A stretch of DNA of 64,000 nt from a virus (IMGVR_UViG_2757320370_000007:73719-137718); one strand, 5' to 3'; positions 7,114 through 63,815 are shown, numbered from the stretch's first letter. Notes: generated by a model from the letters alone, not told the origin. Program-made: numbers and translations.

Positions 7114-7172
7114 CGTTTACATACACCCCTCTGATTATTGAGTTATTGTAACATAGTTATAAAAATCTATTT

Positions 7173-7937
7173 TTAGCAAAAATATTTTAGAATATAATTT
7201 TGAGAAGTGCTTGTGTAAATATCGGCCAATACATCTTTGTCTGTTATTTTATTATCATTGATAATTTTCTGTCTTGCCGCCTTAAAACAAGATAAACAAA
7301 AGATATCAGTTCCTTCTTCTGGCGTAAATTGCCTAAAGCAGTTTTTCTCGACACATATCTTATCTTTAACTGCTACCGCCTTACCGTATGGCCTATATCC
7401 GGCCTTACGCATAGAATCTACCCAACTTAACCCCATCCCCCGGAGAACCTTCTGAGATGGCTTCAAGTTCATGATGTCGTATTCTTTACTTGTTGGTATA
7501 TACCCTAATTTTTTAATTGTTTGTTTTAGTTCTAAAATTGCGTTATCGTTTGTCGCGTATTGAGCATTTGCCATTTTAACATCTGCCACACAAACTATTT
7601 CTGACCATCCGTAGTGTTTGCATATATAGTCATAACTAGGTAGCAAGCTTGGTGTAGACGACTCATATAATACTTTAGACACTTCTCCATATTCTAGGGC
7701 TAATATCTTTAAATTACTGACTGCCTTAATTTTGTTTACGTTTATTAAATACTCTTCTTTATTAAGTACCCCACACAATTTTAAAAACTCAGGGAAAGTT
7801 ATATTTAACTTGTTTTTCAGGGTTTTCCATGCAGGAATATCTCCTCTATTTTTATCATACAGCTCAGTTGTTAAATATCCTCCAACTTTAGACGAGACTT
7901 CTTTTACTCTTTTTACCAACTCTTTATCAATAGTCAT
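7173..7937 (-). CDS. Protein with homing-endonuclease-associated repeats and C-terminal Zn finger
   Basis: Repeated units such as IKKLGYIPTSKEYD...SWVDSMRKAG; C-x4-C...CLSC. Confidence 0.55.
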   Translation of the reverse strand: MTIDKELVKRVKEVSSKVGGYLTTELYDKNRGDIPAWKTLKNKLNITFPEFLKLCGVLNKEEYLINVNKIKAVSNLKILALEYGEVSKVLYESSTPSLLPSYDYICKHYGWSEIVCVADVKMANAQYATNDNAILELKQTIKKLGYIPTSKEYDIMNLKPSQKVLRGMGLSWVDSMRKAGYRPYGKAVAVKDKICVEKNCFRQFTPEEGTDIFCLSCFKAARQKIINDNKITDKDVLADIYTSTSQNYILKYFC

Positions 7938-7958
7938 ACCTTTAGTATCTCCTTACTA

Positions 7959-8426
7959 TCAATATTCTATTCTCATCTTATTCGACATAAGATGGCCCTT
8001 TCCTTTATTTGTATCCACTAAAACATCTTCTACCAAATAAACTATCTCTTTACACTTACTGCAATTCCATGTTTTTCTTTTATATTGTGATTCTGCTGTA
8101 TAAGTTGTTCCACACTTACAATCAACCTTAATCACTATTGTTTGATTACTGTATGCTTTATTTAAAATTTCTTCTTCAGTTTTTTGAATAGATACAATTT
8201 GATTACGATGAACTGAAAATTTATTATGTACTTTAAAATCGGCAACTAAATTTGAATTCAATCCAAAGTATTCGGCACCTATTGTGGTTACAAATTTCTC
8301 ATCATTTTTATAACATTGCATCCATTCATCTATCTGACTATTCGAGAGCGGAACTGTATTCTTAATTCCACTGTTTAACGTGTAAGTCATTATATAGAGA
8401 GTGTTACTATCTTCGTTATTCATCAA
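7959..8426 (-). CDS. Hypothetical protein with C-terminal Zn ribbon
   Basis: CKCG...CSKC; GGAGGTGA RBS. Confidence 0.6.
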   Translation of the reverse strand: MMNNEDSNTLYIMTYTLNSGIKNTVPLSNSQIDEWMQCYKNDEKFVTTIGAEYFGLNSNLVADFKVHNKFSVHRNQIVSIQKTEEEILNKAYSNQTIVIKVDCKCGTTYTAESQYKRKTWNCSKCKEIVYLVEDVLVDTNKGKGHLMSNKMRIEY

Positions 8427-8662
8427 TCAATTATCACCTCCAATAGATAATTTACTTCATTAGATCTAAAAGTCAAGTGATAAATAAAACAAAAAAGACT
8501 CTTACATATAAATAATATCATATGTATTGAGCCTTTTATATATTTATTTGTCGATTTATGTAGTTTTTTTATTACATGTTGTTTTTATGTAGTTTTAAAA
8601 TATGCTTCAGACACACATCCAATTACAACTGTCAAAGCATTATCCCCTCACCTTTTACACTC

Positions 8663-8977
8663 TTATTCAGTTGTTAGATGAATAACATTATCTTTAATGG
8701 TCATCTCACTAACAAATTCGACATCGCTTATACTCAGACCTCTTCCTCCAAGTAGTCTTTCGCCTACTGCGACCTTTAAATGATATGTGCTGTCTTCTGT
8801 AAGTTCCTGTTGGCAACGATACTTAGACTGCCACACATAGCGTTGTTTATCTTGCTCAAAAACATAGGTATGTAGATTCGCTGGGCGAAAGTATCTGTCC
8901 GTATAATCCACACCGTAACTTACTTCGATTAATTTCCCGATGATGTCAGTCTTGTTGTTATCCATATCGACCACCAT
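8663..8977 (-). CDS. Hypothetical protein
   Basis: ORF track; AAGGATGG RBS-like. Confidence 0.55.
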   Translation of the reverse strand: MVVDMDNNKTDIIGKLIEVSYGVDYTDRYFRPANLHTYVFEQDKQRYVWQSKYRCQQELTEDSTYHLKVAVGERLLGGRGLSISDVEFVSEMTIKDNVIHLTTE

Positions 8978-9064
8978 CCATCCTTTTAAAATGTTTAATA
9001 AACTTTGATTAAATTCATTGTACTATATATCATTTAATATGTATATGTTTATATTATAAATAAT

Positions 9065-9247
9065 TTATTTTCTTCTTTTCCTTACAACAAAATTGTCTAT
9101 GGTATCAAAAATTCTATATAATTTAGTTATAAAGTCAATCAAGTCATCTGGATTATTGCTCCGTATACTGGTGTTAATCCAAGTCTCAACTTTTGTAACA
9201 TTGTCTTTGAAAACAAGTTTCTGTATGACGTACCTCTTAGTTGTCAT
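9065..9247 (-). CDS. Hypothetical protein
   Basis: 60-aa ORF behind GGGAG RBS. Confidence 0.5.
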   Translation of the reverse strand: MTTKRYVIQKLVFKDNVTKVETWINTSIRSNNPDDLIDFITKLYRIFDTIDNFVVRKRRK

Positions 9248-9369
9248 TTCTGCGATCTCCCGTTGTAATTATTTCCCTATGATTTTCATTATCGGTCTGA
9301 TATATTATAAAGACATAGTTGATTAACTCTCTGACACTCAGTTAGAGAGAATTTTTTATGTCTATAGAA

Positions 9370-9432
9370 TGGAACGATTATCGTTCCAGTTAAACATATT
9401 ATCAATATACTATTACAAGAACTTCAAGTCAA
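9370..9432 (-). promoter_or_regulatory. SigA promoter toward the repression module plus a perfect 19-bp palindromic operator
   Basis: TTGACT-17-TATATT (9432-9404); TGGAACGAT-T-ATCGTTCCA at 9370-9388. Confidence 0.7.
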
Positions 9433-9472
9433 TAGTCAATAGAGAATTGTTTACAATAAAGGGAGCAATAAT

Positions 9473-9682
9473 ATGCCTTGGGTTGAAATCACACTAGATA
9501 AAATACTAATCACAAAGAATATGACCAGGAGAGAGTTGTCTAGAAGAACAAAAATCAGACACTCGACAATTAATGAGTTATGCAATAATACCGCAAAACA
9601 AATACCATTGAAGAATATTACTTTAATATGTGATGAATTAGAAATTGAGGTCGGGGAATTATTTAAATTTCATAAAGGATAG
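9473..9682 (+). CDS. Cro/C1-type HTH regulator (YopO/YopS-like)
   Basis: LSRRTKIRHSTINELCNN...ICDELEIEVGELF XRE pattern; AAGGGAG RBS. Confidence 0.85.
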   Translation: MPWVEITLDKILITKNMTRRELSRRTKIRHSTINELCNNTAKQIPLKNITLICDELEIEVGELFKFHKG

Positions 9683-9687
9683 AAATT

Positions 9688-9735
9688 AAAAAAGAACGCT
9701 TCTCCATTTTTCTAACCCGGAGGAACGTCTTTTTA
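9688..9735. terminator. Bidirectional terminator between HTH gene and mazF
   Basis: Imperfect inverted repeat flanked by A- and T-tracts between convergent genes. Confidence 0.55.
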
Positions 9736-9738
9736 ATT

Positions 9739-10146
9739 TTATGTTCTCGAAAATGTTCTGGTGGTGCTAATTATTAATGCCCTTTCCAACTCTCGTTCAT
9801 ATCTTTTTGGCATGTCCGTTATTTTGTGTATTAACAAACTCTTGTCGATAGTAAAGTGTTGTTCAAACAACACCACACTGTCTTTGTGAAAACCAATTTC
9901 ATTTGCCTTCATATAAACGTGAGTGGGCAATTTTGCTTTTGTCATGCTGCTGGTGATTGGGCAAACCACCACGAAATTTGAGTGTAAATTGCTTCTATCG
10001 TTTGATATAACTATTGACGGTCTAACTCCTCTTTGTACTGATCCTTTTGATTCGCCTAAGTCTGCCAAAAAAATGTCAAATTGTTTAGTTACAATACTTT
10101 CTGCTCTTTCCATCACCATACTCATAATATCCACTCTCCGATTCAT
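9739..10146 (-). CDS. mazF: MazF/PemK endoribonuclease (EndoA/NdoA-like); alternative start 10125
   Basis: DIFLADL-GS.Q.GVRP-VISND-CPITS-KAKLPTHV-DSVVLFEQ-TIDK aligns with B. subtilis EndoA, including catalytic Arg and Thr. Confidence 0.92.
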   Translation of the reverse strand: MNRRVDIMSMVMERAESIVTKQFDIFLADLGESKGSVQRGVRPSIVISNDRSNLHSNFVVVCPITSSMTKAKLPTHVYMKANEIGFHKDSVVLFEQHFTIDKSLLIHKITDMPKRYERELERALIISTTRTFSRT

Positions 10147-10247
10147 TGATTTAATTTATTTATATTCTCTCTATTCGTTATGTACCTTCAATTCTATGTA
10201 CTTCTTCTTTAATATTCTATGTTTTAGTATTACTTATTTATATGTTT

Positions 10248-10276
10248 ATTATACATGTGCAATTAGATTATTGCAA
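10248..10276 (-). promoter_or_regulatory. SigA promoter of mazF
   Basis: TTGCAA-17-TATAAT. Confidence 0.75.
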
Positions 10277-10339
10277 CACTTATATTTACTATATACACTG
10301 ATTTGTCAATAGTATTTCTAAGGTACAAAACTTTCTCGT

Positions 10340-10386
10340 GGTTATTAGGAATAACCTATTGACAAAAAGGATATAAATGGTATTAA
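10340..10386 (+). promoter_or_regulatory. SigA-like promoter of rsfA-like gene with upstream palindrome
   Basis: GGTTATT-AGG-AATAACC at 10340-10356; TTGACA-16-TATTAA with extended TG. Confidence 0.6.
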
Positions 10387-10410
10387 ACCAAAAAGGAAGG
10401 GTTGTTTTAT

Positions 10411-10899
10411 GTGAAGAGAAAAGATCAATGGAGCCATAGCGATGATACCATACTCTCAAAAACTGTTCTAGAAAATATAAGCAACGGAAAAACACAGCTT
10501 CAAGCTTTTGACACAGTCTCAGAGACTCTGGGTAAGACTTCTGCGGCTTGCGGCTTTCGTTGGAACAGCGAAGTACGTAAAAGATTTGCGATCGAAATCA
10601 AGGAAGCGAAGGTAATTAGACAAAGTATTAAGAGTACGCCCACAAGAAACAATGTAAAATTTGATGATCGAATTTCATTGGATAAGGTTATATTATCTTT
10701 ACTTCGTATTAAACAAGAATATGAAGTGATGAAGCAGAATCTCGCAGAGAAGGATAAAATTATTTACGAATTCGAATCAGAAAAGAAGCTACTCGCACCT
10801 GATTTGAACGACGATATGAGACACTTTCTTCAAATCCTTAAAAGATCAAGTATTTTAGATAATTTAACAAATGTAAACCAAAAAGACCCTGCCAGTTAA
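10411..10899 (+). CDS. rsfA: RsfA/YlbO-family (Myb-like) sporulation transcription regulator
   Basis: RKDQWSHSDDTILSKTVL...TQLQAF...KTSAACGFRWNSEVR signature; likely GTG start 10411. Confidence 0.85.
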   Translation: MKRKDQWSHSDDTILSKTVLENISNGKTQLQAFDTVSETLGKTSAACGFRWNSEVRKRFAIEIKEAKVIRQSIKSTPTRNNVKFDDRISLDKVILSLLRIKQEYEVMKQNLAEKDKIIYEFESEKKLLAPDLNDDMRHFLQILKRSSILDNLTNVNQKDPAS

Positions 10900-10933
10900 T
10901 GTGGAGGGTTCTTTTTATGATGAAGTTCGTCTT

Positions 10934-11314
10934 TTATGTTGTTTTATCATTAATTAAGTTAGCTAAAATCTTTTTGATGAAATCTGCTGTCAAAGTTTCA
11001 TTATTTGTTTCGTTCGAATTGTTTATTAGTCCTTCAGAATTGAATTCTGGAAAACCAACCATTTCAGAAATCAGGCTGCTTTCAAATAATCCTCTGGGTA
11101 TATTTTTGCTCACTACAGAATCTATAATTCGATTAAGTTCATAATCATCTAGTATTGAATTTATTGAATCTTCCGTTATAAATAGAAAATGAAGATAAGC
11201 TAAAATTTCTTTAGATAGTTGCGTCATGTAAGACGACAATTCGCGTGACTTATAGCCAGTTGGCCCCTTATGCACTATAAAATTCCCTGAGAATACTGGA
11301 CGCATCAAAGCCAC
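10934..11314 (-). CDS. Hypothetical protein
   Basis: ORF track; AGGAG RBS. Confidence 0.55.
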   Translation of the reverse strand: MALMRPVFSGNFIVHKGPTGYKSRELSSYMTQLSKEILAYLHFLFITEDSINSILDDYELNRIIDSVVSKNIPRGLFESSLISEMVGFPEFNSEGLINNSNETNNETLTADFIKKILANLINDKTT

Positions 11315-11432
11315 TCCTTATATATAGATTTATATAATTTGATTAATTAAATGTAACACAAATCATATGAAAAAAACCAACCTAAATATTTGATTGGTTT
11401 ATGAAATCTACATTTCAATAAAATTTAAGGAA

Positions 11433-11669
11433 TTATTCCGAATAATATCTTTCTTCTCTTTGTCTCAAGTATTCTTCGTGCTCTTGTTCCTGTTCTCTTT
11501 TCCTGTCCTCGTCATCTATCTCCTGTCTTATTCTCTCGTCTTCCTCCTCATCTTCTTCTCTTTTTCTTTCTTCCTCTTCGCGCGCGTCTTCCTCCCACTG
11601 TCTCTTTTCTTCATCTTCTTGCTCTTGGTGTTCTACCATCTCTTCAAACCAATCCTTTTCACCGTTCAT
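11433..11669 (-). CDS. Extremely acidic E/R-rich small protein
   Basis: 38 of 78 residues are Asp/Glu; co-oriented with neighbours. Confidence 0.6.
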   Translation of the reverse strand: MNGEKDWFEEMVEHQEQEDEEKRQWEEDAREEEERKREEDEEEDERIRQEIDDEDRKREQEQEHEEYLRQREERYYSE

Positions 11670-11760
11670 ACAACATCACGTCTTTTCTCATTATTTTATT
11701 TCATAAATATCATTTATCTTTGTTTTCGATCATATTCACTCTGTAGATCTCCCCAAAAAA

Positions 11761-14700
11761 TCAAAATGCTTGTTTATGAAACTTTATGTACAAAATATTA
11801 TCTTTAATTATGGCAGAAGTATACCCTTTATTATCCTTAGAGTCTTGGTACTTCACTATCTCCTGGGCCATCTCCGTTGTCATCTCGCCTTTATAAATAT
11901 GGAATGTCTACAATTGATCTAATCGGGATCTCGCAGCTTTTACAATTGATATCAACGCGCTCTAAGATAGTCTTAACTGGATCACTTAGATACTGCCAAT
12001 CATTCTCTATCTTTTTCACCGATTAATCTCCTTTTCCTCAATTACTGATTTCAATATGTGAATATTCTCAATCGTTTCGTCAATGTCGCTTTGTTTAGAG
12101 GGATAACTTTCAGATATGTAGTAAGCCCCAAGATCTTTTGTGTGAATGTTTACCATCTTATTCAGCCCATGCTGCGAGATTTTTCTTAAATCATTCTTGT
12201 GATAAATCCCCACATTCGTCCCTCCATTCTCCCTATAAAACTTGCATTTAAAACTTGCATTTCCTCTTCTTATATGTATCCAGAATTTAACTTCTTTTAA
12301 GAATATTCCCAACAACTTTTAAGTTTTCATCTTGCACAAGATAGGTCACTAATTCGCACCAAACATCTCTCCGTTCACCAACCTCAACTCCATATGTGTT
12401 ATTAACCTCATCCCACAGAACAACCGCTTCTACCCTGCTATCGCCCCTTAGAACGTCTCCTAGCCTAATATAGTCGCTATTAAGTACAACACCTGTATTA
12501 TGCTCCACTTTTCATCTCCCTCACGCTATTTAGATAAAAGATGCCATTTATTTTCTATACTATCTCATTATGTCAACGTTTTTGCATATTCCTCCACAAC
12601 ATTTCTATCCCTATTCTCGCAGAGCCAAATACCGCTATCTTTTTTATCTGTTATGTAATAAACATCGCCAAGTGTCCAATGTAGAATTTGATATCCATTG
12701 ACAATACTCACATTACTATGCATTTTTCAACTCCAGCCTCTCATACACTATTCAATAGCCTTTATCGAAATCAGGCATATTGTCATACGTCCTGTCTAAC
12801 TCTTTTTTCAAAAACTCCAAACCCTCCGTTGTCAAATATCCAACCAACTGAGGCGTTAAGTCACATAAGAATTGATTGCATTCGTTATATCCCGCAATAC
12901 CGCCCTCTGAATAGCTGCGATTTAGTCGCATAACACAATGATCCTGTAACTTTTGTTTCTTGGTTTTCTTCACTTTGCAAACCCTCTTTCATATGCCATA
13001 TCCGTCTGCTTCGCTTTCCACTTCGTACTGTGTATTAGCCTACTACTAATCAATTGGTGAGGTTAACATAGTAAGCAACTGCATCTCCGTCACTATCAAC
13101 AAACTCCACCTTAGCCGAATCAGCGTCAACAGATTCCCCGCCATTCCAAAAAGCATCAGTTAAGCAGTTTGCTGCGGCGAACTTCTCTATTGCTTCCTCC
13201 ATAGATTCAGCGAAGGCCGTACCAGCAAATAAGCTGTTCTCAAAATGTGTAAATCTATACCTTTTCATGAATTATCCCTCCAAATTAAATAAGTAACGTC
13301 TAACATTTTGGTGCGCCGTATGCGTCTACTGCGTTTTTAATAAAACCATTCCTTTTACAGTGTTATTTGATGCCGTTTTCCAATTCTAAAGAATCCAAAA
13401 TAGCATTCATCAATCTAACTTGACTCACTGGGTGATCCCATGTTTGACCTACTCTTTTACCTTCTGAATCCCTATATTCCATTTTTAGATACCTCGTATC
13501 TTCAACAGTATCCTCCTTTGCCCAAATTTCAAGCCCATTTTCTGTTTCTCCTGTATGCAACCATCCGTTTACTTTTTTCATTATTAATCACCTTCCACAT
13601 TCTGATTCACAATCCATAATCCCTGAACATCTTCAGCAATCACTTTTAACTGCTCCAGAGCTGCGCACATGGCTCCCCAACGTGTCACCGCCTCTTCCTC
13701 TATGGTTCCGCTTTCTCCGCTTGTGGTACGATATTCTAACGTGTGTTTGACCATTTCCACTCATCCCTCTCTTCTTGATTCGGTATAATTTTGCCTAATA
13801 GCATCTTGAATTATTTGCTCTATATCATCTGAAGTGCCTTCACTATTAGACAGTTTATCAGCGACAAGAAGAAAGTGTTCCTCTTGTATATTAAAGCCGT
13901 TGTCTTCAAACCATTTAATAACTTCTTGTTCAATTCGATTGGCTCGATTTCTTAATTCCATAATTTCATCGATCTTAGCCCTTTGAAGATCTGGTAATTT
14001 GAATATATTCTTCACTTCATCTTCAATTGGTTTTAAATCATTTATATTGACCTTTCCATTACGCCTAGTGTCTACGAATAGAACCCCTGCCTTCGAGTGG
14101 AGAGATGAGTTCTAATAAGATACATCTTCTCCCATTATTTCTCGTGTTATTGGGACTGTCTATTACATAGGTGTATCCCACTTTAATATCTGTTTGCTCT
14201 ATATTAATCACCCCACATAATCAAATAGCCATTTCATAGTTAACTTAAAGTTTATTTGAGTAATTTCTCGGCAATGAAACTTGCAGTAATCAAAATCTCT
14301 TGTCTCAGTTCTTCATATATCCTCGCATGACGCTTTAGCGCAACTTCATCATCAAAATCGCAATTTTTCATGTATTCGTTAGCACCGTAATCTCTAAATA
14401 CCAATTTATCGTTTTGATATTTATTTAAGAGTTCTAATAAAGTCATATCATTCATTTCTTTTTCTATAGACAAGGACAGCCACCTCATTTAAAGTTGTTG
14501 ATGATCAAACAGTCATTTGACTGAGAAACCAGCCTTAATTATTGCTCGACGATGTTTCTCAGGTCTCTTGCCATCATCATCAATATTCGCTTTAATTCTT
14601 CCTCGTCTTTTGTTGACTGCTCTGTTAGAATTCTTGTGAATTCAGCAACCTTAACCTCTATTTCTACTTTTTTGAGTATTTCCTTCTCGCGCAACAATTC

Positions 14701-15604
14701 GTCAATATGATATTCAATTTGGCTCATACTTTTCATTTTATAATCCTCCGATTTTTTATATTATGTATTTCGCCAACCTCATGAAATAAACCTTTCGTCA
14801 CCTCTATGCTAACTATATTATACCAAATGCAAGTATCAACTGTTATATTCAACAAAGAGACATGCAAGTCCTACATCTATTTCTCCCAGATTTTATCCCT
14901 CTGCTTTCGAAAGAGATAAATCAGAAATCATCATATCAATAATTGAATCAAATGTTATTGTGGGTCTTCTCAACGTAAAGAAACTTTTCATGAGGTCATA
15001 CGGACTTTCAACGTAACCCTTTTCTTGCAATTGAATAAACACCTTCAGAACAAAATCATATATATGATAAGACTCTGTAGATTCTAAAGGAATTTGGAAA
15101 TTCCAGGCTGTAATAATTCTTAATGCTTCCATTAAATTTTTATTTCTATAATGTCCCTTCGTATATAAAATAAGTTTTTTCTCGCCGTAATTTAACTCAA
15201 TCATATTATCGATTCCTTTAAGTTGTTTTGAATGCTATCTATGCTCAAATATACACTCACATATTTCTTGTTATTACTTGGGTACTGTTTGGACTTACTC
15301 AAGATCAAATGTGGAATACTTTTTAGAAATTCATCAATTTCCTCTGGAAATCCCTCAATGCGTAGTTTAAGCATCAGTGTCTCACCTCTTGGAATTAATC
15401 TTTCAGGGAAAAATGTTCCCATCCTAAATCTTCATCTAGACCTCTAAAATATGTTTCTGTTTTTTCTCCGTCAACCCAAACATCAACATTAAAAGAATCA
15501 AAATTTTGATGTGGTTCGATTTTCATCGCCTTGTCTCTATCTTTACCAGCATACACAATATCTGCTCCGTTGCTAAAGTATCCGATTGTTATATAGGTTT
15601 TCAT
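11761..15604 (-). CDS. Array of about 17 small co-oriented early hypothetical genes (e.g. 12016-12315, 12752-12973, 13050-13268, 13363-13581, 13761-14015, 14252-14488, 14539-14736, 14893-15204, 15201-15422, 15395-15604, plus several 40-60 aa ORFs below the track cutoff)
   Basis: Tightly packed ORFs, most with GGAGG-type RBS. Confidence 0.7.
12287..12508 (-). CDS. YopX-family protein (short)
   Basis: GDVL...VLWD...LKVVGNIL C-terminal YopX pattern. Confidence 0.65.
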   Translation of the reverse strand: MEHNTGVVLNSDYIRLGDVLRGDSRVEAVVLWDEVNNTYGVEVGERRDVWCELVTYLVQDENLKVVGNILKRS

Positions 15605-15897
15605 TGTTGGACTCCCCTTCTAATCAAATCAGACTTTCGTCTGGGTACTTCGTTAGCTGCTACATATGCTAACGCCTCTCTTACTTCCTCTTCAGTTAGA
15701 TCAAAGTCACTTACAATCTCAGCAACAGTTCCATAACACACGATGTTTCTCGGCATAATTCTAGTACCTATAATGGTTGGTAATCCCCAACATACTCCAT
15801 CTTTTACTCCAATATATTTATAGCCCTCTAGTGGTGTCCATGTATTAAAAAACTCACTGTACTCGCTTATTTCATTTATGTTCATAAATTCCTCCAC
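15601..15897 (-). CDS. DUF433-domain protein
   Basis: GLPTIIGTRI...EIVSDFDLTEEEVREALAY. Confidence 0.75.
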   Translation of the reverse strand: MEEFMNINEISEYSEFFNTWTPLEGYKYIGVKDGVCWGLPTIIGTRIMPRNIVCYGTVAEIVSDFDLTEEEVREALAYVAANEVPRRKSDLIRRGVQQ

Positions 15898-15996
15898 TTA
15901 AAATCATTCTTTTATTCTTAAGTCTAGATTCATATACTTTTGTCTATTCACATGTTAATATTATCCTGTTTTCATATAAAAACTAGGAGGAAGACT

Positions 15997-17238
15997 ATGT
16001 TTAAGAAATTCAAGCTATTTATATGTTTAACCATCTTTTTGTCTATTCTATTTCCTATGTTGCTCATCTCTCCAAACAATGCACAAGCTAAATACGTAAA
16101 AGGATATTATCGGAGCAATGGAACTTATGTAAATGGTTATTATCGAAGTGACACTAACAGTAGCTACACGCCTTCAAATAACTATTATCGAAGTGACACC
16201 AACAGCAGCTATACGCCTTCTTATGAACAATCCACACAAAGATCTACTTCAAACTATACAGTTAATCTTTATAAGGGAAATTCTTATTATAAAACTGTTC
16301 CATCAAGTAATTTGGTCTATATAAAGGGATATTATCGAACAGATGGTACATTTGTGCGACCACATTTTAGGACTCATCCAAATGACTTTTTAACAGATAA
16401 TTTCAGCTATTTGGGATTATCAACTCTAAAGCCACTTCAAAGTTATTCAAACTTTCAATATAGTGACAATCCGAAAATCGCAGTGATTGAAAATTATTTA
16501 GCATATGAAGTCTACGAAAAAAGTCTTAGTATTGAGCAGCTTAATGATTTAAAGAATTATGCTAATTTAATTTATAATGAGAATTCTGGAAATTCAAATA
16601 TTCTAAACACTCTAGACTGTGGTATGAAATATTACTCGTCATTAGGAATTTCTAATGAAATAGGTTTAGAATTATCAAAATTTGATATTAATGGTAAGTT
16701 AACACCTTCCGCTTATTTAAGCCAAATTCTTTATCAGAACAATATTTATTCCTTTGGTGAAGAGGATTTTTACTTTTTTAAGGCATATGCATTTTCATTG
16801 GCTGGCAGCAAAGACATCCTTTATGGAAAATACTATTCAGATCGTGCAAAGGAGATAGGAAAATATCTTTATCAAAGAGTTGGATTGAGTGATCCAACAT
16901 TACAGATCGAAATGGATTTAATGCAAAATTTTGAGTATAGTGGTGAAGAGTTTCAAGATATTGTTGAGGATCTAAATCAGAATTATTTGCATAAATATTC
17001 TGAAAACCCTCCTACTGATGTTAACTATTATCTAGACCAAGTACTTACAAACAATTCTAAAACTAAGATGACAAAAACAGAATATTCACAATATGAAGCG
17101 TCGCTTCGCATTTTGTCCTATAATAAATCTCTTAATAGTTATTTGGTTAAAAATGGTAACATATTGTATAATAAGGCTGGTTTAAGTACCGATCAGACGA
17201 TAAATCAAATTTCCAAAGATATAATTATTTTCTTTTAA
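15997..17238 (+). CDS. Secreted/exported protein (moron) with repeated V.GYYR.DGT.V motif
   Basis: Signal peptide ending AQA-K; YVKGYYRSNGTYV and YIKGYYRTDGTFVRPHFRTHPN; GGAGG RBS before ATG 15997; opposite strand to neighbours. Confidence 0.75.
   Translation: MFKKFKLFICLTIFLSILFPMLLISPNNAQAKYVKGYYRSNGTYVNGYYRSDTNSSYTPSNNYYRSDTNSSYTPSYEQSTQRSTSNYTVNLYKGNSYYKTVPSSNLVYIKGYYRTDGTFVRPHFRTHPNDFLTDNFSYLGLSTLKPLQSYSNFQYSDNPKIAVIENYLAYEVYEKSLSIEQLNDLKNYANLIYNENSGNSNILNTLDCGMKYYSSLGISNEIGLELSKFDINGKLTPSAYLSQILYQNNIYSFGEEDFYFFKAYAFSLAGSKDILYGKYYSDRAKEIGKYLYQRVGLSDPTLQIEMDLMQNFEYSGEEFQDIVEDLNQNYLHKYSENPPTDVNYYLDQVLTNNSKTKMTKTEYSQYEASLRILSYNKSLNSYLVKNGNILYNKAGLSTDQTINQISKDIIIFF
16138..16220 (+). repeat. 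In-frame 38-bp direct repeat with 45-bp period (YYRSDTNSSYTPS x2)
   Basis: 16138-16175 and 16183-16220 differ only at synonymous positions. Confidence 0.9.
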
Positions 17239-17246
17239 ATTACTTC

Positions 17247-17271
17247 AGGTCATCAAATGATGGCCTTTTTT
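17247..17271 (+). terminator. Intrinsic terminator of the moron
   Basis: AGGTCATC-AAAT-GATGGCCT followed by T-tract. Confidence 0.8.
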
Positions 17272-17307
17272 ATTTTATCTTTCACCGCTCTCAGTCAAAT
17301 AACTGTT

Positions 17308-17502
17308 TCATCTGGTTGTAACAATTTTATTGTCGCACTTTAAACACTCAACGCTGCTAATTACATAATCTCCACAATCAAGATCAACATCGCCTTCAGT
17401 GTGCAAGTAATTGTATTTACTGTCCGTAATCACTTTGCTCTTTGCTCCACATTTGGTGCAGATAACTTCAAACATATCGTACCTCCTTATAAAATCCTGC
17501 AT
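17308..17502 (-). CDS. Small Zn-ribbon protein
   Basis: CTKC...CLKC. Confidence 0.6.
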   Translation of the reverse strand: MQDFIRRYDMFEVICTKCGAKSKVITDSKYNYLHTEGDVDLDCGDYVISSVECLKCDNKIVTTR

Positions 17503-17511
17503 TCGTGATAA

Positions 17512-18150
17512 TTAAACTGTTAACAATGAGGCCAGTGCCTTTGATATTTGACGCTTGCTATCTTGAACTCTTTTCAATTCATTAAAGTTTGAACTTATAT
17601 CTGCCTCTAAATGTTTAACCTTATCAATTGATTCGTCTCTCAGTTGTTTAGATTTTGTTTTATGTGCCAAAAGGTTCAATTCTGCTATCTCTAGTTGCTT
17701 CATAAACTTAAAATCTAGAAACTCCTTAGACATTCTTTTTTCAAGTCGATCATGTTTTTTGAATTCTGTTTGATAGAGCTTTATCAATTTATCTTGTAGA
17801 GGTATGTCTTTTACTTTACTAAATATATGACTATCACTATCTGAAACAACGTCGTTTTTGTCATAAACAATAAATGATTTCTCTTTTGAATCCATGATTG
17901 TTCTAATAGTTGAAAAATCAATACTTAGATAGATTTGAATTTTATTAGGTGCAACAAACATTTGAGCTTTATTCCCCTTATCACAAGTAGTCTCGCCTAT
18001 GTATTTAGCATTTCCAAGTAAAGATTTACAAAAATTTAAAGCATCCTGCTTGTTTTCTCTATGATATCTTTGTATGACTCTTTTAACAGCATGATCCTCT
18101 ATGCCTATTTTTTTAATATTAAGAACAGGACATTCCTTTGTAGCACTCAT
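17512..18150 (-). CDS. Hypothetical protein: possible BECR/RelE-like N-terminus plus coiled coil
   Basis: IEDHAVKRVIQR motif; helical C-terminal half. Confidence 0.45.
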   Translation of the reverse strand: MSATKECPVLNIKKIGIEDHAVKRVIQRYHRENKQDALNFCKSLLGNAKYIGETTCDKGNKAQMFVAPNKIQIYLSIDFSTIRTIMDSKEKSFIVYDKNDVVSDSDSHIFSKVKDIPLQDKLIKLYQTEFKKHDRLEKRMSKEFLDFKFMKQLEIAELNLLAHKTKSKQLRDESIDKVKHLEADISSNFNELKRVQDSKRQISKALASLLTV

Positions 18151-18522
18151 AACGAATCACTCCTTATATTTTAGTTTGTCTTTATTCAAATATCTGGTAA
18201 GCCTCCATCAATTCATCAAGTGTATATTCCTTCATCATCGCTTTAGCATTTCTCCATCATGTTCAAGCGTGTTGTAAATTTGTTCTTCAACGATCAATTT
18301 TCTTGCCTTAGTCATTGTTCTGATGCCTCCTAGATATATATTTGATTTATCATTTCTATCCTGAGTTAATCCTATCACAAGATACAATTAGTGTGCATAT
18401 GTTTAGTATATAAATCTAAAATAAACTATTGACTCCTTTGACAACCACATATCCCCAAAGAATTACAACCACTGCAATAATAGGCCAGTCCCGTTTTACA
18501 ACACTGATTACATTTGACATGT

Positions 18523-18765
18523 CTATTCCTCCCCTTCATCTTTACTTGCGCCACCATCAATCATATTTGTTGCCGCCTCAGTTCCTTTATGTCGCATTCT
18601 CTGATGAATAGAGTATATATTTATATCTTTATCATACTGACACTTGTAGCAAGCGACAGGAAGCCCATGAGAGACACAATAGTTGTAAGCTGCTTCAGTT
18701 ACGGGTTTATCGCAAAAGGAACATGAATGATTTTCCATATGCACTCTCCCTACTTGATATTTCAA
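18523..18765 (-). CDS. Small Zn-finger protein
   Basis: CSFC...C...CYKCQ. Confidence 0.55.
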   Translation of the reverse strand: MKYQVGRVHMENHSCSFCDKPVTEAAYNYCVSHGLPVACYKCQYDKDINIYSIHQRMRHKGTEAATNMIDGGASKDEGEE

Positions 18766-18852
18766 TTAATATGTATATTCATCAAATAGGTAAAAATAAG
18801 AGCGATCATTTGAATAATTGCTTCGGTTTGGTGTTGTTATAAAATTGACATT

Positions 18853-19263
18853 TTACGATGATAAATAATCTAGAATCATCTTAAAGCATTGTTCTTCTTG
18901 TATATCTAATTGTTTATTTTGGGATTTTTTCATTATCATTTCAGTGAATATTTCCGCAAATTGTTCTTTATGGTTTATAAATTCTCTAATCTCATAGGCA
19001 TGGAAACCTAAAGCCTCACCATTGAATAATTGATAATGAATAGCATGACCAATTTTATGAATTGCTGTTTCAAGTATTGATCGGGAATGAAGATAGACAA
19101 TACCATTATCATATGCCCCATCAGCTATTTCATTTATTGAATATGGTAAATGATCTTTGACAACATATCGTACATTGTCTAATAATGATGGAAAGATGTC
19201 GGCTATCCTTTTTCTTGCTACATTATCCAGTATTCCAACGGTAGTAAGAGAAAATAAGTTCAT
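18853..19263 (-). CDS. Zincin-like protein with degenerate HExxH (HKIGH)
   Basis: TAIHKIGHAIH...EQFAEIF. Confidence 0.55.
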   Translation of the reverse strand: MNLFSLTTVGILDNVARKRIADIFPSLLDNVRYVVKDHLPYSINEIADGAYDNGIVYLHSRSILETAIHKIGHAIHYQLFNGEALGFHAYEIREFINHKEQFAEIFTEMIMKKSQNKQLDIQEEQCFKMILDYLSS

Positions 19264-19316
19264 ATTCTACTTTCATCCCCTCTCTTGGTTCATTAAATTA
19301 AAATCCTACTAAACCA

Positions 19317-19586
19317 TTATTTATCTTCGACTATTTTCCAAACGTTGATGTTCTGTTGCTCTATCATATTGTCTGTTAGGATATTTGTGCTTTCGTGTCC
19401 GGTCAGACTAACAAATACCAACTGTTTATATTCCGTATTCGGTGCTTTATAGGCCGAGTTGTCTATAACTTGATCTTTCCAAGCAATTTCACAGCCATTT
19501 GATTTTACTGCTTTCATTTTATAATTCTTCGCTAGTATTTGGAGAACTTCAAATAAATTTAAATTTTCCACTCTTACCGCCTCCAC
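19317..19586 (-). CDS. Hypothetical protein (weak Tad2/DUF2829-like termini)
   Basis: LNLFEVLQILAKNYKMKAVK...VWKIVE. Confidence 0.35.
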   Translation of the reverse strand: MEAVRVENLNLFEVLQILAKNYKMKAVKSNGCEIAWKDQVIDNSAYKAPNTEYKQLVFVSLTGHESTNILTDNMIEQQNINVWKIVEDK

Positions 19587-19617
19587 ACTATGTATTGTGT
19601 TCCTCTTATTATTTACT

Positions 19618-19667
19618 ATAATACACTATCCGCAACAACAAGTCAATTATAATATATGTTTACTATA
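19618..19667 (-). promoter_or_regulatory. SigA early promoter with upstream repeat motif
   Basis: TTGACT-17-TATTAT; TATAGTAAACATATAT at 19652-19667. Confidence 0.75.
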
Positions 19668-19695
19668 TAAAAAGAAAACTACATGACAACTTTTA

Positions 19696-20160
19696 TCACC
19701 CATCTATAATTATCACCTCGCCGCCAACATTCATGATCTCAGCTCTAAACCCTCCAGACTCCTCTATAATCCCAATCAATGCGCATCCCTTGTTCCAGAA
19801 CAAATGATCCTCCACGTTCTCACTAAAGCGCTCAGACGATCCATAAGCACGATATACGCACTTAGATGGAATATTCCATTCAATTTCCTCTTCATTCATA
19901 TAAATTTCATGAAACACAAATCTACCTTGAGGAGTACAGATAATTACACCTGAATAAGTGTAACCACAATCGGCAAACATGTTGATATCTTCCCAAGTAG
20001 CAATACTGTACTCTAAACCTGACTCTATCGCCTCTTGCTCAGTCTGGAATATGTATTCGGAGTAAATAACGTTACCTTTGTCAGAGAGTCTGTCCGTAGC
20101 GACAGCGGCGTAATACAACGTGATTTCGTTTCTTCTACTATAATCCTCGGCAATGTTCAT
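19696..20160 (-). CDS. Hypothetical acidic protein
   Basis: ORF track; AAGGGGG RBS. Confidence 0.6.
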   Translation of the reverse strand: MNIAEDYSRRNEITLYYAAVATDRLSDKGNVIYSEYIFQTEQEAIESGLEYSIATWEDINMFADCGYTYSGVIICTPQGRFVFHEIYMNEEEIEWNIPSKCVYRAYGSSERFSENVEDHLFWNKGCALIGIIEESGGFRAEIMNVGGEVIIIDG

Positions 20161-20377
20161 TTCTTCATTTCCCCTTTTTATAAATCATAAAATAAGTATA
20201 ATAGGTTTGTCGTCCATCAGAGATGTTATAAAGACTAATTATGGGTTGATTTTGGACGCAAGTTAACAAAATATTACCTATGTTCAATAGAGTTAACATT
20301 TGATATAATACCAATATAAGGGATGTCCTTCTTCCTGTCAACTACATTTAACATCCGTTAACTAGGAGCGATTTATA

Positions 20378-21202
20378 TTGCAAACATTCAGTTTAAATAA
20401 CCAATTCGGATATCTTATAAAAGAATTGAGAAATAAAAGAAAGTGGTCTCTACGACAGGCTGGAAGTAAATCGGGATTGAGTGCTGCATATATATCTATG
20501 TTAGAGCGTGGGCAACATTCGACTAGTGGCAAGGAGATAAAGGTAACACCCGAGACAATATCGAAATTAGCGGCGGCTTATGAATATCCTTATAATATTC
20601 TGATGATTCGTGCGGGTTACAGAGAGACTGATGAAAAGAAAGATTTTTTTTATAAGGAAACCACACCTAAAGAAATCACTATCCATGAAAGCGAAGCAAA
20701 CTATGATGCTTATCTTGAATCATTACAAAATATTATTAATCCTCCAGTCAATAATCCTCCTTTTAGTTTTTTTGAGGAAACAATAGGAGAAAGAATCAGA
20801 AAATTACGTGATGAAAAGAAAATATCGGCGAAAGATTTATCAAGCGAATTAACTCAAACCTCAAATAAAGATGGATTTTTTACTTTTAGATTTTTCGAAG
20901 AAGAGGAAATTTTACGAATTGAAGATGACGAATTAAAACCAGATTCAGATTTTATCATTGCTATATCAGAATACTATAAAGTTTCTTGTGATTGGATATT
21001 GAGAGGAAAGGAATTTGAACATGATAAAACCAAACTAACAAATGAAAACAAATTACTCAACGAAAAGCAAGATATAGCCAATAATATAATTAAACAACTT
21101 CACGAATTGAAACATACAGTTAATCGAATGTCAATTGATCTAAATGAGACCTTAGAAGTCGCCGCATCAATCGAAGACAAAGAAAAGGCGCAAAGTGATT
21201 AA
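20378..21202 (+). CDS. Transcriptional regulator with two XRE HTH domains
   Basis: LIKELRNKRKWSLRQAGSKSGLSAAYISMLERG and IGERIRKLRDEKKISAKDLS. Confidence 0.85.
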   Translation: MQTFSLNNQFGYLIKELRNKRKWSLRQAGSKSGLSAAYISMLERGQHSTSGKEIKVTPETISKLAAAYEYPYNILMIRAGYRETDEKKDFFYKETTPKEITIHESEANYDAYLESLQNIINPPVNNPPFSFFEETIGERIRKLRDEKKISAKDLSSELTQTSNKDGFFTFRFFEEEEILRIEDDELKPDSDFIIAISEYYKVSCDWILRGKEFEHDKTKLTNENKLLNEKQDIANNIIKQLHELKHTVNRMSIDLNETLEVAASIEDKEKAQSD

Positions 21203-21264
21203 TTCACTAAGCGCCACTTCTTTAGTATTTAAATTGTTGTAAAAGACGGGTTTTATCAGATCAC

Positions 21265-21567
21265 TTATATATCATCATCTTGGGAATAATCGTATTCATA
21301 AGGACTCTCTTCTTCCTCAATAACTCTTTCCCTATATAATATGTAGGTCGCCTCTTTCAAGTTTGCATGACGCTCTTCTTCCAAAGCGAGAATCCACCCA
21401 TCAGAACCCAAAGAGTTTAAAACACCTATAAAGCTATGAGTATCATTAAACTCTTGGTGAATTTCATTTTCCTCATTCTCAGGATTGGTATACACATATG
21501 AGAAAATCCAAGAAAACCCATCACGATCAATACTTTTCAACAATTTCCCGTATTCATAATTTTTCAT
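21265..21567 (-). CDS. Hypothetical acidic protein
   Basis: ORF track; GAGGAG RBS. Confidence 0.6.
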   Translation of the reverse strand: MKNYEYGKLLKSIDRDGFSWIFSYVYTNPENEENEIHQEFNDTHSFIGVLNSLGSDGWILALEEERHANLKEATYILYRERVIEEEESPYEYDYSQDDDI

Positions 21568-21639
21568 ACTATCGTCTCCTCTCTTTAGATATAGTTAATA
21601 CGCAAAATCCATAAAATGGTTTCTAAATAAATAAGCATT

Positions 21640-22077
21640 TTATTGTGTTGAAAACTCAATATTAAGTTCTATAAGTTTTATCGTTGGTTCCCATTCTCTT
21701 TTATTAATACTTCCGGTATATGCAACATTATTATGTATTGAGAATTTATCTTTTGAACAAATGCCGTGACTTTCTAATTCAAGTAAAAATTCATTTTTTC
21801 GATTCAAGTTGTTACAGCGACAATACCACTGTGTAAGCAAATAAATTAATGTATCATCTAAATTAAATTCAAGTCGGGGGCTTGAAAGTTTCTTGTTTAT
21901 TTGTATGGTTGAATCTTCATTAGTCCAAAAATTCAGTGCCCCATGTGTTCCTCGAAAATTATTCGCATATTCAATCTTGCCAGTAAATTTCTCATTCCAT
22001 ATTTTAGAGGTGTAGAAATATGCCTTTTCTTTTAATTTCAAATTCTCATTTTCAAAATCAAATTCTTTCTTGCTCAA
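21640..22077 (-). CDS. SprT-like protein with lost HExxH
   Basis: NFRGTHG...IQINKKL...DTLIYLLTQW, where SprT has DTL.HE..H. Confidence 0.5.
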   Translation of the reverse strand: MSKKEFDFENENLKLKEKAYFYTSKIWNEKFTGKIEYANNFRGTHGALNFWTNEDSTIQINKKLSSPRLEFNLDDTLIYLLTQWYCRCNNLNRKNEFLLELESHGICSKDKFSIHNNVAYTGSINKREWEPTIKLIELNIEFSTQ

Positions 22078-22125
22078 AGCCTACACCTCCAAACTAGATT
22101 TTTTTTGATAATGTGATAACCTCAC

Positions 22126-25100
22126 TTACTCTTCTTCAATAAAATTCCCTTCGTTATCATATTCTTCAACATCGATACTATCAATAAAAACGTCTTTAAA
22201 GAACTTAATATCATCTTTATTCAGAACAATCATTAATGCCTCATCTTCCACTTTAACATAAACTCTTTCTTCATCTTTATTAAAATCATATCCCGCGATG
22301 CCCTCTAAACTATCCAAAGTACCAGGATGAGCAAACAGAATCAATTCATTCTCTGACCAACAATATGTGAGAAGCTCCAGTTCGTCAGCGGTGATATCAT
22401 AATGAGAATCGACATACCCTATTTGCTTGGGTAGTAGTTTTTTACCCTCGGTGTTGATAAGGTTCATTTTATCCTGAATAAATTGGATGTTCATTTTTAT
22501 TCCTCCCGTTATATGTATGAATTAATTGTACTACACTTTTATACGCTGGGCCGTAAAACAAGAATTTTATCAATTGTTGATCATTTGCAGACTATTGCTA
22601 GTAATAAAAGCTTTAACTTCTGAAACACCCCAAACTTCTTTTGTCCAATCTTTTATTCCACTTACAATATTCTCTACCCTATTAAACTCAACTGAAATTC
22701 CTTCTTCAATGAGTTTATCAAGGCATGAAGAATGTCTATATATCTCCATTTGATAAAATTCTTTATGCTCATCTTCGATAAATAGACCTTTTTTCCCTAA
22801 AAAGCAGAGTTTGATTTTTTTCTGCTCTAGTTCTGATAATACATTTTCAAAATTCACAATAATCTTTTTATTTTTCATTTCATATTCCTCCGTGTTCTAG
22901 TGAAATCACTCGTTTAATCTAATTTATCTATGTTGTACGTTACGGTTATTTGAAACGTGCAAAAGCTCCCATTAGACTAAACAGATCGTCATGATTATCA
23001 TATCTCAAAGTACATCCACCTGCATTAATTGACACTTTTCCATTTTTAAGAAAAGTAATTACAAAACTAGAAAATCGTCCAGTAGTATATTTTTTCTTTC
23101 CTTTAATTTTATTACTGACGATATCTACAGTATGAGAATTTAGGCTATCTAAAAAATGTCTGTACATTTCTATTTGACTCATCATTTTTCATTCCTCCAT
23201 TTTATCCTAGTTTTCAATTGTTTCTATTTTTACCGTACCCTTAGATAAAAACGAATCTGTTAAGATGAACTTACCATTCATATCAAAAAATTCATTGTTT
23301 CCATCTTCCGATCTGAGAAATGTCGCCACTTTAGAAAATGAACCGTAGTTGATCAGATAAATGTTTCCATTTTCCATTCTATTTGCCTCCTATGTATTAT
23401 CCTATAAATACATTTTACACTACTCACAATATATATTAAATAGTTTTATATATGTTTACGTTATAAAATATGGTTTTTATCGGGTTAAATAATCGGTTTA
23501 ATCTTCAGCCAGTAGTTTCCGTTTAAATAAATATCTATTGTTCCATCTTCGTTGAACTTAGTATCTTTGGCTTTAGGAATATCAAGCCACGAATCTCTTC
23601 CGTTAACAAGTGTTGTTATCGCATTGGTTTGAACCTTGTTGATTTCTCTTATTTGGCCTCCTGCCATTTCGGGCTTCATTGTATTTTCAATGAACTGAAT
23701 TTCCTTGCCTTTCTCCAGCCACTTTTTGAATTGAGACATATTTTTAATTGTCATTATAATTTCCCCTTTTCATTTATTGTTTTGTTGATACGTGTTAAAT
23801 ACTGAAATACCGTTTCAACAAAACATTTTTCAGAATTGAATCGTTCAACATTAGACCGTTCGTAAAATTCCCCGATTACAAAACCATCTTTGCGACTTAC
23901 AACCCAGGAACCAGAATAACGATTAAGTTCAGGTATATGTATTTTTTCAGACATTAACCGATCCTCCAATGTAGTTCATTCCATTATGGCAAGTCAACCA
24001 TTACCCAACCTTCATTATCATATCCTTGATAAACAACATATTCTTCATTCTCTTCTGTTACCATTAGGTCAACTCCAGTCCCATCTTCGTCATAGGCTGA
24101 AAAGTAAGCTCTATCCTCATCGGCCTCTGCTGCTTCGATTCCTGTCCAATATCCAGTGCTAATCAGAAAGTTCATAACCTTATGTTTATTCATTATTTTT
24201 ACCCTCCTTAATATTTTCTTTCTGAAATCCGGTTTTTATTTTATTTATTTATGCTTCGATTACATTTCTTTCATCTGCCATGGCCCATTTAAAATATGCT
24301 TTATCTCTTGCTTCTTCAATGTCCCCTGCCCAGATCCCATGCCTTTTTGCTGTTCCACTATTTGTAACATCTACATGAAAGTATTTTTGTTTTTGTTCTG
24401 TTTCGGTTTTTGTGGCTTCATTCGGTGTCAAACACCCGTTAAGAAGCGAATATTCAATATGTTGTTTTATCATATCAATATTTTTATCTATCAGGATTTC
24501 TGTATTCTTTATTGCAGAATGTTTATCTACACTGTTATGAATAAAAGCAAGACCAGTTTTAACTAATGATGTATTAAACGTTCCATCTTCATTTTGGTGA
24601 GTAAAACATTCAATTCCGTTATATTGAAACCCTTCTCCATCCACTTTTAAAAATCCATGTTTCTTAGTTGCAATATAAAATTCCATATTTATTCCTCCTA
24701 TTACTTTCTTGATGAAATTATCATTTCACGTTGTCTTGATTAGACTTAAATTTACTGCGTCTGTCTGCTGCATATTCTTTTTTGAAAGTCTTCATAAACC
24801 ATGTGTTAAAACCTCTTAGATTTGCAAATGATTCATCATATGCTTTCTTTGCTTCTTTCCATTCAGGCATAGCTCTTACATGGTCTGGAGTCATTCCCAA
24901 AGCGTTCTTGCCATATTTATTAAATCCTTTCAATACATCGGAACAGGCGTTTGTTTGTTTTTGAAGTTTTTGTCCATTTGCTTTTGCTTCTTCGTAGATC
25001 ATATGTATTACCTCCCTAATTTAGATTAGCCTTCTACTTTAATAACAATATCAATCATCTCGTCCAGATCATCAACCAGTTTCTCATTCACTTTAATTTC

Positions 25101-25250: not shown

Positions 25251-25280
25251 ATGTATTCACCTCTTATTTGGAATAACTAA

Positions 25281-63741: not shown

Positions 63742-63815
63742 CATCAAACTATCGTTTTATCATAAAAATACATATACAAGCCCTTTCTTATAAGGGCTTC
63801 TCGGGGAGTTAAGTC

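Follow-up and report, generated by a model that had tools for sequence, protein, structure and literature searches.

Spacing-specific palindromes with junction-specific cores as candidate joints for module exchange in SPbeta-like phages

In the modular theory of Susskind and Botstein, and in comparisons of HK620 with other lambdoid phages, short linker or boundary sequences mark the places where modules join. The attC sites of integrons are imperfect inverted repeats of 57-141 bp that fold as single strands with extrahelical bases. Tyrosine recombinases use sites such as the dif-type core sites, with an 11-6-11 layout, and spacer variants of lox and FRT are heterospecific sites for recombinase-mediated cassette exchange; we know of no natural phage system of heterospecific-site cassette exchange. 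The promoter-early stem-loops (PeSLs) of T4-type phages were proposed as exchange points by Arbiol et al. in 2010 (PMC2839356), and SPBRE, present in about ten copies, is the operator bound by the repressor MrpR of phage SPbeta (PMC10516654). Here we analyze a 16-bp palindrome, TNAAA-N6-TTTNA, that recurs at the junctions of small early genes in a 64,000-nucleotide stretch of viral DNA (IMGVR_UViG_2757320370_000007:73719-137718; the window, whose first letter is position 1) and in its relatives. We assign a probability of about one half to the interpretation that these palindromes are recombination joints with an address-like core, used for allelic exchange of gene modules and not for integron-style shuffling.

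The window is part of a prophage of ~175 kb and 34% G+C in a host genome of 8.54 Mb and 49.7% G+C (G000); the prophage edges are steps in G+C from ~52% to 34% at window coordinates ~-75,500 and +101,500, and the names of its closest protein relatives point to a Paenibacillus host. Judged by homology, an MrpR/YopR-type repressor, homologs of YopQ and YopP, and a YorG-like Sak4 protein identify it as SPbeta-like. Gene calls place early genes on the minus strand from ~-75,500 to 39,000 and late genes on the plus strand from 39,000 to 99,700. Two sets of phages were compared. The first consists of nine SPbeta-like phages (SPbeta, Goe11, Goe13, phi3T, SPR, SPbetaL2, L4, L6 and L8) aligned pairwise with blastn. 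The second, the clade of the window, consists of four early regions: W, that of the window phage, and G301, G302 and G303 from IMG/VR, among which conserved genes are ~77-90% identical and the small-gene arrays are mostly unalignable. A megablast search of 7000-25000 against the phage collection returned no matches, and a DNA search covering 300 host-family genomes returned only weak ones (70-87% over 27-131 bases). As the window phage thus lacks a close relative, base-level breakpoints were taken from the SPbeta group and the G301/G302 pair.

Counted over the whole window, the palindrome has 21 matches as against 11.6 +/- 3.2 in shuffled sequences, which agrees with the estimate of about 11 chance matches in an earlier sequence-only reading and, taken alone, is weak evidence. 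The spacing of the arms provides a far sharper control. Between 7000 and 25300 there are 13 copies with the 6-nt spacer (N6) and 1-8 at the control spacings N0-N15; in the entire prophage the figures are 78 and 15-28. In the 15.4 kb of early-region intergenic DNA, 46 copies at N6 stand against 0-10 at other spacings (0-4 apart from N7, where the count is 10; in SPbeta the sequence TTTTAA allows a single site to match both N6 and N7), whereas early-region coding DNA has 16 as against ~11, and late-region gaps have 4 as against 0-3. In total 62 copies lie in the early region, from ~-67,000 to +25,000, so that the window contains only the right-hand quarter of the array. The prophage accounts for 78 of the 392 matches to the pattern in the 8.5-Mb genome, about a fifth. 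A perfect copy is found at ~22% of same-strand early junctions, and at 36% of those with a gap of 35-59 nt. The palindrome is hence real, spacing-specific and intergenic, and this signal is stronger than the sequence-only reading had estimated.

All 13 full matches listed in that reading, from 7160 to 24713 and at 63744, are present, and each of the 13 copies in 7000-25300 lies in a gap or overlaps a stop codon, much as had been described; the list itself lacked a copy at 12236 within its own range and seven more at 42514-62691. Its six one-mismatch copies also exist, but as a class such sites show no enrichment (49 at N6, 30-78 at other spacings). Likewise, its impression that the arms are often symmetric does not hold up, as complementary pairs at the N positions number 20 with 17.1 expected. 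The region 7000-25300 can be described as 12 modules of 1-8 genes with 13 sites between them, six of which have a partner with the same core in a relative. The sites are given below; no strand is assigned to them.

7160-7175: palindrome; its final 3 bases double as the stop codon of 7173-7937 (minus), and the YopQ-like gene starts 46 nt downstream of it.
11402-11417: palindrome; intergenic.
12236-12251: palindrome absent from the earlier list; same 6-base core in G303.
14221-14236: palindrome; same core in G303.
14505-14520: palindrome; same core in G302, with unrelated flanking genes.
15899-15914: palindrome; 13 nt upstream of the start of 15601-15885 (minus), and left bracket of the inverted gene 15997-17238 (plus).
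17295-17310: palindrome; overlaps the stop codon of 17308-17475 (minus), and right bracket of the inverted gene; same core in G303.
18840-18855: palindrome; overlaps the stop codon of 18853-19263 (minus); same core in G302, and in G301 with different N positions.
21240-21255: palindrome; between the convergent genes 20378-21202 (plus) and 21265-21567 (minus); same core in G301 and G302, with unrelated flanks.
22554-22569: palindrome; directly after the stop codon of 22570-22878 (minus).
23464-23479: palindrome; intergenic.
24223-24238: palindrome; 23984-24193 (minus) starts 29 nt downstream of it.
24713-24728: palindrome; the stop codon of 24721-25002 (minus) lies inside its core.
63744-63759: palindrome at a late-gene junction; other late copies are at 42514, 46241 and 62691.

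A trivial origin of the pattern would be base composition combined with gene punctuation, with a TAA or TGA stop followed by an A-rich stretch and a T-rich stretch before the ribosome-binding site. The region indeed has 34% G+C, and the left arm reads TAA or TGA in the mRNA sense in 87% of copies. However, 10 of 46 sites actually share bases of the left arm with the stop codon of the upstream gene, which elsewhere is up to ~50 nt upstream; with these exact stops set aside, TRA triplets in frame with the upstream gene occur at about the chance rate (counted by eye). The spacing controls contradict such an origin directly, as pairs of arms at any other spacing are 5- to 40-fold less frequent in those early gaps, and the reversed pattern is 3- to 5-fold less frequent. 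Nor can composition yield the collinear, identical cores in four phages that are described below. We consider it extremely improbable that the palindrome is an artefact of this kind.

If the palindromes mark module junctions, as had been proposed, breakpoints between related phages should coincide with them, and they do so strongly. Among the nine SPbeta-like phages 121 of the 419 clustered ends of homology blocks lie within 15 bp of the center of the motif, with 12 expected. Right ends of blocks cluster 1-2 nt beyond the final motif base and left ends 0-2 nt ahead of the initial one, which implies that the whole site, including the core, belongs to both neighboring blocks. Individual alleles are accordingly seen in several contexts: that with the core GATGCA, common to all nine phages, is joined to 4 classes of upstream and 5 of downstream flank, and that with the core AGACTG has 5 upstream and 6 downstream classes. 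Taking the 28 alleles found in at least two phages, 13 have more than one flank class on a side (7.7% of control 16-mers) and 5 on both sides (0.9% of control 16-mers). A breakpoint occurs at 79 of 84 junctions with the motif versus 69 of 146 longer junctions without it, an odds ratio of 17.6 among phages that are related to one another. In the clade of the window, 24 left ends of blocks fall at positions -8 to 0 and 20 right ends just after the site, with ~1-2 per bin set at random. Gene pairs are conserved at only 4 of 153 motif junctions having a homolog of at least one flank, versus 99 of 517 longer junctions without the motif and 136 of 467 short gaps.

The six central bases carry the most distinctive part of the signal. 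The sequence-only reading took this spacer to vary freely, which is correct between junctions, but at a given junction it is conserved across phages. In the clade of the window there are 69 pairs of sites with identical cores between phages, as against 8.3 +/- 2.7 in column-preserving shuffles, and no excess of pairs with one mismatch (117, with 126 +/- 11 expected); by our estimate, neutral drift at 77-90% identity would give roughly as many one-mismatch pairs as identical ones, or more. The shared cores follow the same order in the different phages, with a Spearman coefficient of 1.0 in five of the six phage pairs and 0.9 in the sixth, and no core is repeated within the genome of any of the four phages. 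The genes around them are a different matter: in 58 of the 69 same-core pairs, homologs at the corresponding place are lacking for both flanking genes (blastp E <= 0.01), and none of the 69 has homologs on both sides. Immediately outside positions A3 to T14 identity falls to the non-allelic level, the N positions being at 0.52 and 0.46 with a baseline of 0.37, so that the stretch of identity shared by allelic sites may be only 12 bases long. Taken together, the all-or-none cores, their collinearity and the unrelated flanks lead to the conclusion that these phages share an ordered series of address-like sequences, between which the genes have been replaced.

These observations suggest how such an array might operate. 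Each palindrome would join two exchangeable blocks, of one to eight small early genes apiece, and would have dyad arms common to all sites (A-T-R-A-A-A ... T-T-T-Y-A-T) and a 6-base core peculiar to the junction. In a cell that contains two related phages, crossover would be confined to the palindromes and would require the same core in both partners. The blocks on either side would thereby reassort slot for slot, while gene order is kept and internal deletions are avoided, by the same logic as in cassette exchange with heterospecific lox or FRT sites. A dimeric phage protein is proposed to read the arms and direct the exchange; the candidate agents are a YopP-family tyrosine recombinase, the ParB/DndB-like YopQ, and short-homology recombination by a Sak4-like protein, of which the YopP-family tyrosine-recombinase-like protein at 37727-38785 would be the leading candidate for an enzyme. 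In the more specific version of this proposal the enzyme reads the arms and requires matching cores, following the rule of tyrosine recombinases, and we see the chances for and against this version as evenly balanced. A site-directed enzyme with this requirement would explain at once the single dyad pattern, the strict spacing and the exact conservation of cores. The geometry noted in the sequence-only reading, two arms around 6 bases, does fit the logic of tyrosine-recombinase sites when taken together with the apparent need for identical cores. The exact-core pattern is also what recombination at short homologies would give.

The same reading went further and suggested an integron-like system, in which the small genes are cassettes that are excised as circles, reinserted at the motif and so shuffled. 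There are several points of resemblance, namely small genes in one orientation with one site at each junction, a tyrosine-recombinase-like gene in the phage, and the inverted gene 15997-17238, which is indeed bracketed by the copies at 15899 and 17295. The evidence from the cores, however, runs the other way. As no core is common to two sites of a genome, excision between sites is not expected, and as the shared sites are collinear and not permuted, exchange would be slot-for-slot instead of a reshuffling. Moreover, the modules comprise one to eight genes, the sites have 16 bp with neither covariation nor a stable fold, unlike the much longer attC hairpins, and no IntI-type integrase is seen, the only Phage_integrase-family match of the prophage being the YopP-like gene. 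An integron-like mode of action is thus very unlikely.

The anatomy of the sites bears on how they might be read. In the mRNA sense the consensus is R-T-R-A-A-A-K-N4-A-T-T-T-B-A-T-N-A-N-G-A, followed by the Shine-Dalgarno sequence, and the 5-6-5 layout extends weakly to 8-6-8 (TNA-TNAAA...TTTNA-TNA). Each arm has four positions that are invariant by definition and 2-3 that are weakly conserved, neighboring positions having 0.3-0.7 bits. This placement directly 5' of the Shine-Dalgarno sequence, with the start codon mostly 15-26 nt past the 3' end of the palindrome, together with the AU-richness of the site, could be taken to indicate an element of the mRNA, that is a signal for processing or stability, or a standby site for translation. 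In line with this, 4 of the 13 in-window copies (those of 7000-25300) fold better than ~95% of shuffles. Yet predicted energies range from -0.3 to -9.1 kcal/mol and are for most copies within the range of shuffles, and there is no covariation at either N2/N15 (the 20 complementary pairs given above) or positions 6/11 (9 complementary pairs, 14.3 expected). The distance to the Shine-Dalgarno sequence varies from 1 to 14 nt, the copies at 17295, 21240 and -18188, at convergent gene ends, have no downstream gene on that strand, and an Rfam scan found only two tRNAs and a skipping-rope RNA, none of them at palindromes. The consensus is symmetric, as it would be for double-stranded DNA, and an element of the mRNA leaves the conservation of cores beside unrelated flanks unexplained. 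The RNA-processing hairpin that had been offered as an alternative is for these reasons disfavored, and we rate a role of the palindrome in the mRNA as improbable. At one SPbeta locus (L044) two raw RNA runs gave 0 reads and Ribo-seq was sparse, and contigs from the RNA runs may be DNA carry-over. Signals of transcription are likewise lacking at these sites: between 7000 and 25400 there are 86 promoter-like matches (89.8 +/- 8.9 in shuffles), no positions upstream of the palindrome are conserved, and terminator matches are at the level of shuffles, with none at palindromes. The symmetric consensus, the lack of covariation and the lack of a consistent fold argue for a palindrome that is read on double-stranded DNA by a dimer and not as a hairpin.

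This raises the question of which protein might be the reader. Two gene products of the window can be proposed, both by inference:

37727-38785, minus strand: YopP-family tyrosine-recombinase-like gene, homolog of SPbeta YopP, candidate reader of the arms.
5773-7113, minus strand: homolog of YopQ with a DndB/ParB-like domain, adjoining the repressor gene; alternative candidate reader.

The YopP-like gene lies ~13 kb from the end of the array, and together with the MrpR-like repressor it makes up the recombinase-type genes of the prophage. In a pairwise alignment its product keeps the R, K, HxxR and Y of the R-K-H-R-H/W-Y catalytic set. SPbeta YopP itself is without an assigned function (PMC8612738). 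Genes of the YopP family (including our loci L046-L050) occur in many siphophages of 115-170 kb from Bacillus, Geobacillus, Psychrobacillus, Brevibacillus, Alicyclobacillus and Staphylococcus, and also in the virulent Lactococcus 949 group, where the homolog is ORF1 of the genome. As the latter phages are virulent and do not integrate, the role of the family is probably not prophage integration. The motif is enriched 2- to 2.7-fold in the YopP-bearing phages Bacillus PBC2 (46 vs 17), Geobacillus E3 (71 vs 35) and Lactococcus 949 (39 vs 20).

On the other hand, the palindrome might primarily be the binding site of a dimeric regulator or of a clamp-loading protein that controls the early region, and only secondarily, as the one sequence common to otherwise unrelated neighbors, a point of crossover at short homology for the recombination functions of the phage, with module exchange as a by-product. 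The candidate binders would be the YopQ-like protein of the ParB/DndB family, expressed in lysogeny, or a protein with a helix-turn-helix (HTH) domain. The dyad-symmetric consensus without covariation suits such a protein as well, the layout of 7 + 4 + 7 bases resembles operators of HTH dimers, and the sites are confined to the early region, which is silenced in lysogeny. The YopQ homolog adjoins the repressor gene, and its relatives are annotated as DndB/DGQHR proteins or proteins with a ParB N-terminal domain. Transcripts of yopQ are made by the dormant SPbeta prophage, and colonies become prone to lysis when this gene is deleted (bioRxiv 10.1101/2021.11.22.469490). Just left of the window lies the gene of a Sak4-like annealing protein with 64% identity to SPbeta YorG, and the PeSLs set a precedent for regulatory cassettes that serve as exchange points (PMC2839356). 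Against this, reading of the arms alone would not account for exactly conserved cores or for the missing one-mismatch class, unless the exchange itself needs the core, and 12-18 identical bases are little for homologous recombination. Another junction motif, AATACATA, draws 9 block ends as against 44 at the palindrome, although this difference is not strongly discriminating. Chromatin affinity precipitation sequencing (ChAP-seq) of SPbeta MrpR found the SPBRE sites and not palindromes (PMC10516654). We regard a primarily regulatory site as possible but doubtful.

Several points have to be set against the interpretation of the palindromes as address-coded exchange joints. Most synteny breaks occur at junctions without a perfect motif, the gene calls come from a heuristic of our own, and the phages compared are not phylogenetically independent. 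No enzyme is tied to the palindrome by any test made, SPbeta YopP has K in place of the second catalytic Arg, and the arms are short for known arms of tyrosine recombinases. Of five other phages with YopP, two lack enrichment of the motif, vB_BcoS-136 (40 vs 35) and a Staphylococcus SPbeta-like phage (36 vs 34); the co-occurrence of motif and YopP is thus mixed and neither supports nor refutes a connection, as the specificity may differ between phages. Finally, a Sak4-like annealing protein exchanging DNA at 12-18 identical bases would give the same comparative pattern.

The palindrome is a family trait of SPbeta-like phages. The genome of SPbeta c2 has 54 copies at N6, with ~25 at most other spacings, and its early region 39, with 8-20 at others, mostly in the form TAAAA-N6-TTTTA directly after a stop codon; in the pooled early regions of the nine SPbeta-like phages this form occurs 78 times, with 0-4 at other spacings. 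The genomes of G301-G303 have 66-78 copies each, with 14-20 of the reversed pattern, of which 59-65 are in the early region, where other spacings give 5-28. A review of SPbeta, a preprint on SPbeta relatives, a preprint on prophage recombination and the MrpR paper contain no mention of the palindrome, the genome paper of 1999 lying outside this scope.

Between the palindrome and the Shine-Dalgarno sequence there is a second junction motif, AATACATA(T), with ~28 intergenic copies in the early region, for instance upstream of the minus-strand starts at 724, 1786, 14736, 22494 and 30737, and in each of the four phages of the clade there are 52-60 copies on the sense strand per early region and 4-12 on the antisense strand, about half being intergenic. 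AATACATA is the reverse complement of AATATGTATA, the core found in nine of the ten MrpR-bound SPBRE regions of SPbeta, and AATACATA(T) appears to be the counterpart of SPBRE in the window. The palindrome itself is not SPBRE, a 15-bp motif with the core AATATGTATA: both sequence and copy number differ. The second motif contains UACAU, which we take to be the cut site of B. subtilis MazF, and is of interest in this respect beside the PemK/MazF-like toxin gene of the array. The remaining features of the region are as follows:

9739-10125, minus strand: PemK/MazF-like toxin (Pfam E 6.8e-24), within the small-gene array.
4785-5780, minus strand: MrpR/YopR-like master repressor, by homology.
3475-4023, minus strand: AgrB-like protein (E 6.4e-20), directly downstream of the repressor gene.
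2918-3292, minus strand: LytTR-like protein, a weak match, downstream of the repressor gene with the AgrB-like gene.
1923-1995 and 2000-2082, minus strand: two tRNA genes, in the lysogeny-proximal part.
25363-28404, minus strand: fusion of an N6-adenine methylase domain with a DEAD/helicase C domain, 1013 residues, the gene best kept in the IMG/VR relatives (71-86% amino-acid identity).
42626-42728, plus strand: skipping-rope RNA (Rfam RF02924, 64 bits), where the late region begins.

The AgrB-like and LytTR-like pair may constitute a peptide-signal module that replaces arbitrium.

No mechanism has been stated for the fast turnover of these arrays of small genes while their order is kept. Address-like cores within a common site would account for such order-preserving mosaicism, would provide a rule predicting which blocks swap between phages, and would point to a function for the conserved YopP or YopQ. 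The arrays of SPbeta-like phages hold anti-defense genes, Gad1 and Gad2 being annotated in slots of the small-gene arrays of the SPbetaL phages. Our tentative suggestion is that large SPbeta-like siphophages of the Bacillota carry a natural form of recombinase-mediated cassette exchange, with ~50 ordered slots for accessory and anti-defense genes that reassort independently and, as the most plausible enzyme, a member of the YopP family. If an enzyme is involved, the palindromes would provide dozens of short recombination sites that are orthogonal to one another and ready for use.

A comparison with the systems outlined at the outset helps place the palindromes. In common with the elements at lambdoid boundaries they are short conserved sequences at gene boundaries that join unrelated modules, but the lambdoid sequences are heterogeneous and locus-specific with no common motif, whereas here there is one dyad pattern with strict spacing. 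The resemblance to integrons extends to one site per junction, small co-oriented accessory genes and a tyrosine-recombinase-type gene; integrons, however, have an attC folded as a single strand, IntI with an adjacent attI and Pc, and cassettes that are excised and reordered, none of which is found in the palindrome array, where order is kept. The geometry and copy number of the palindrome would fit sites of ParB/Noc proteins (parS and NBS), which are palindromes of 14-16 bp in tens of dispersed copies, and a YopQ homolog with a DndB/ParB-like domain is present, but copies of parS and NBS share their whole sequence while those of the palindrome differ in the central 6 bases. SPBRE is also a repeated intergenic element of this phage family, read by a protein of tyrosine-recombinase fold, but is restricted to promoter regions and to a much smaller number of copies. 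With lox, FRT and dif the palindrome shares the general plan of tyrosine-recombinase sites, inverted arms around a center of 6-8 bp, which is 6 bp here, with common arms and differing centers. As with heterospecific lox or FRT sites, exchange appears to require the same center in both partners, and there is no signature of it between the unlike sites of a genome. In the arms the likeness ends: with four invariant positions each, as against ~9-13 specific bp in tyrosine-recombinase arms, they fall well short of the 11-13 bp arms of Xer, Cre and Flp sites and are far more degenerate.

The PeSLs, too, are short repeated intergenic elements between stop codon and Shine-Dalgarno sequence, present in ~50 copies per genome in hyperplastic arrays of small, uncharacterized early genes, and they bound insertions, deletions and replacements between related phages, as the palindrome does. 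A PeSL is a larger cassette with a strong sigma-70 promoter and a G/C-rich stem-loop terminator, and recombination between neighboring copies makes mini-circles. The palindrome, by contrast, has 16-18 bp, no promoter or terminator signal above shuffles and no stable stem, but its core is specific to the junction, with conservation between phages that is all-or-none and collinear.

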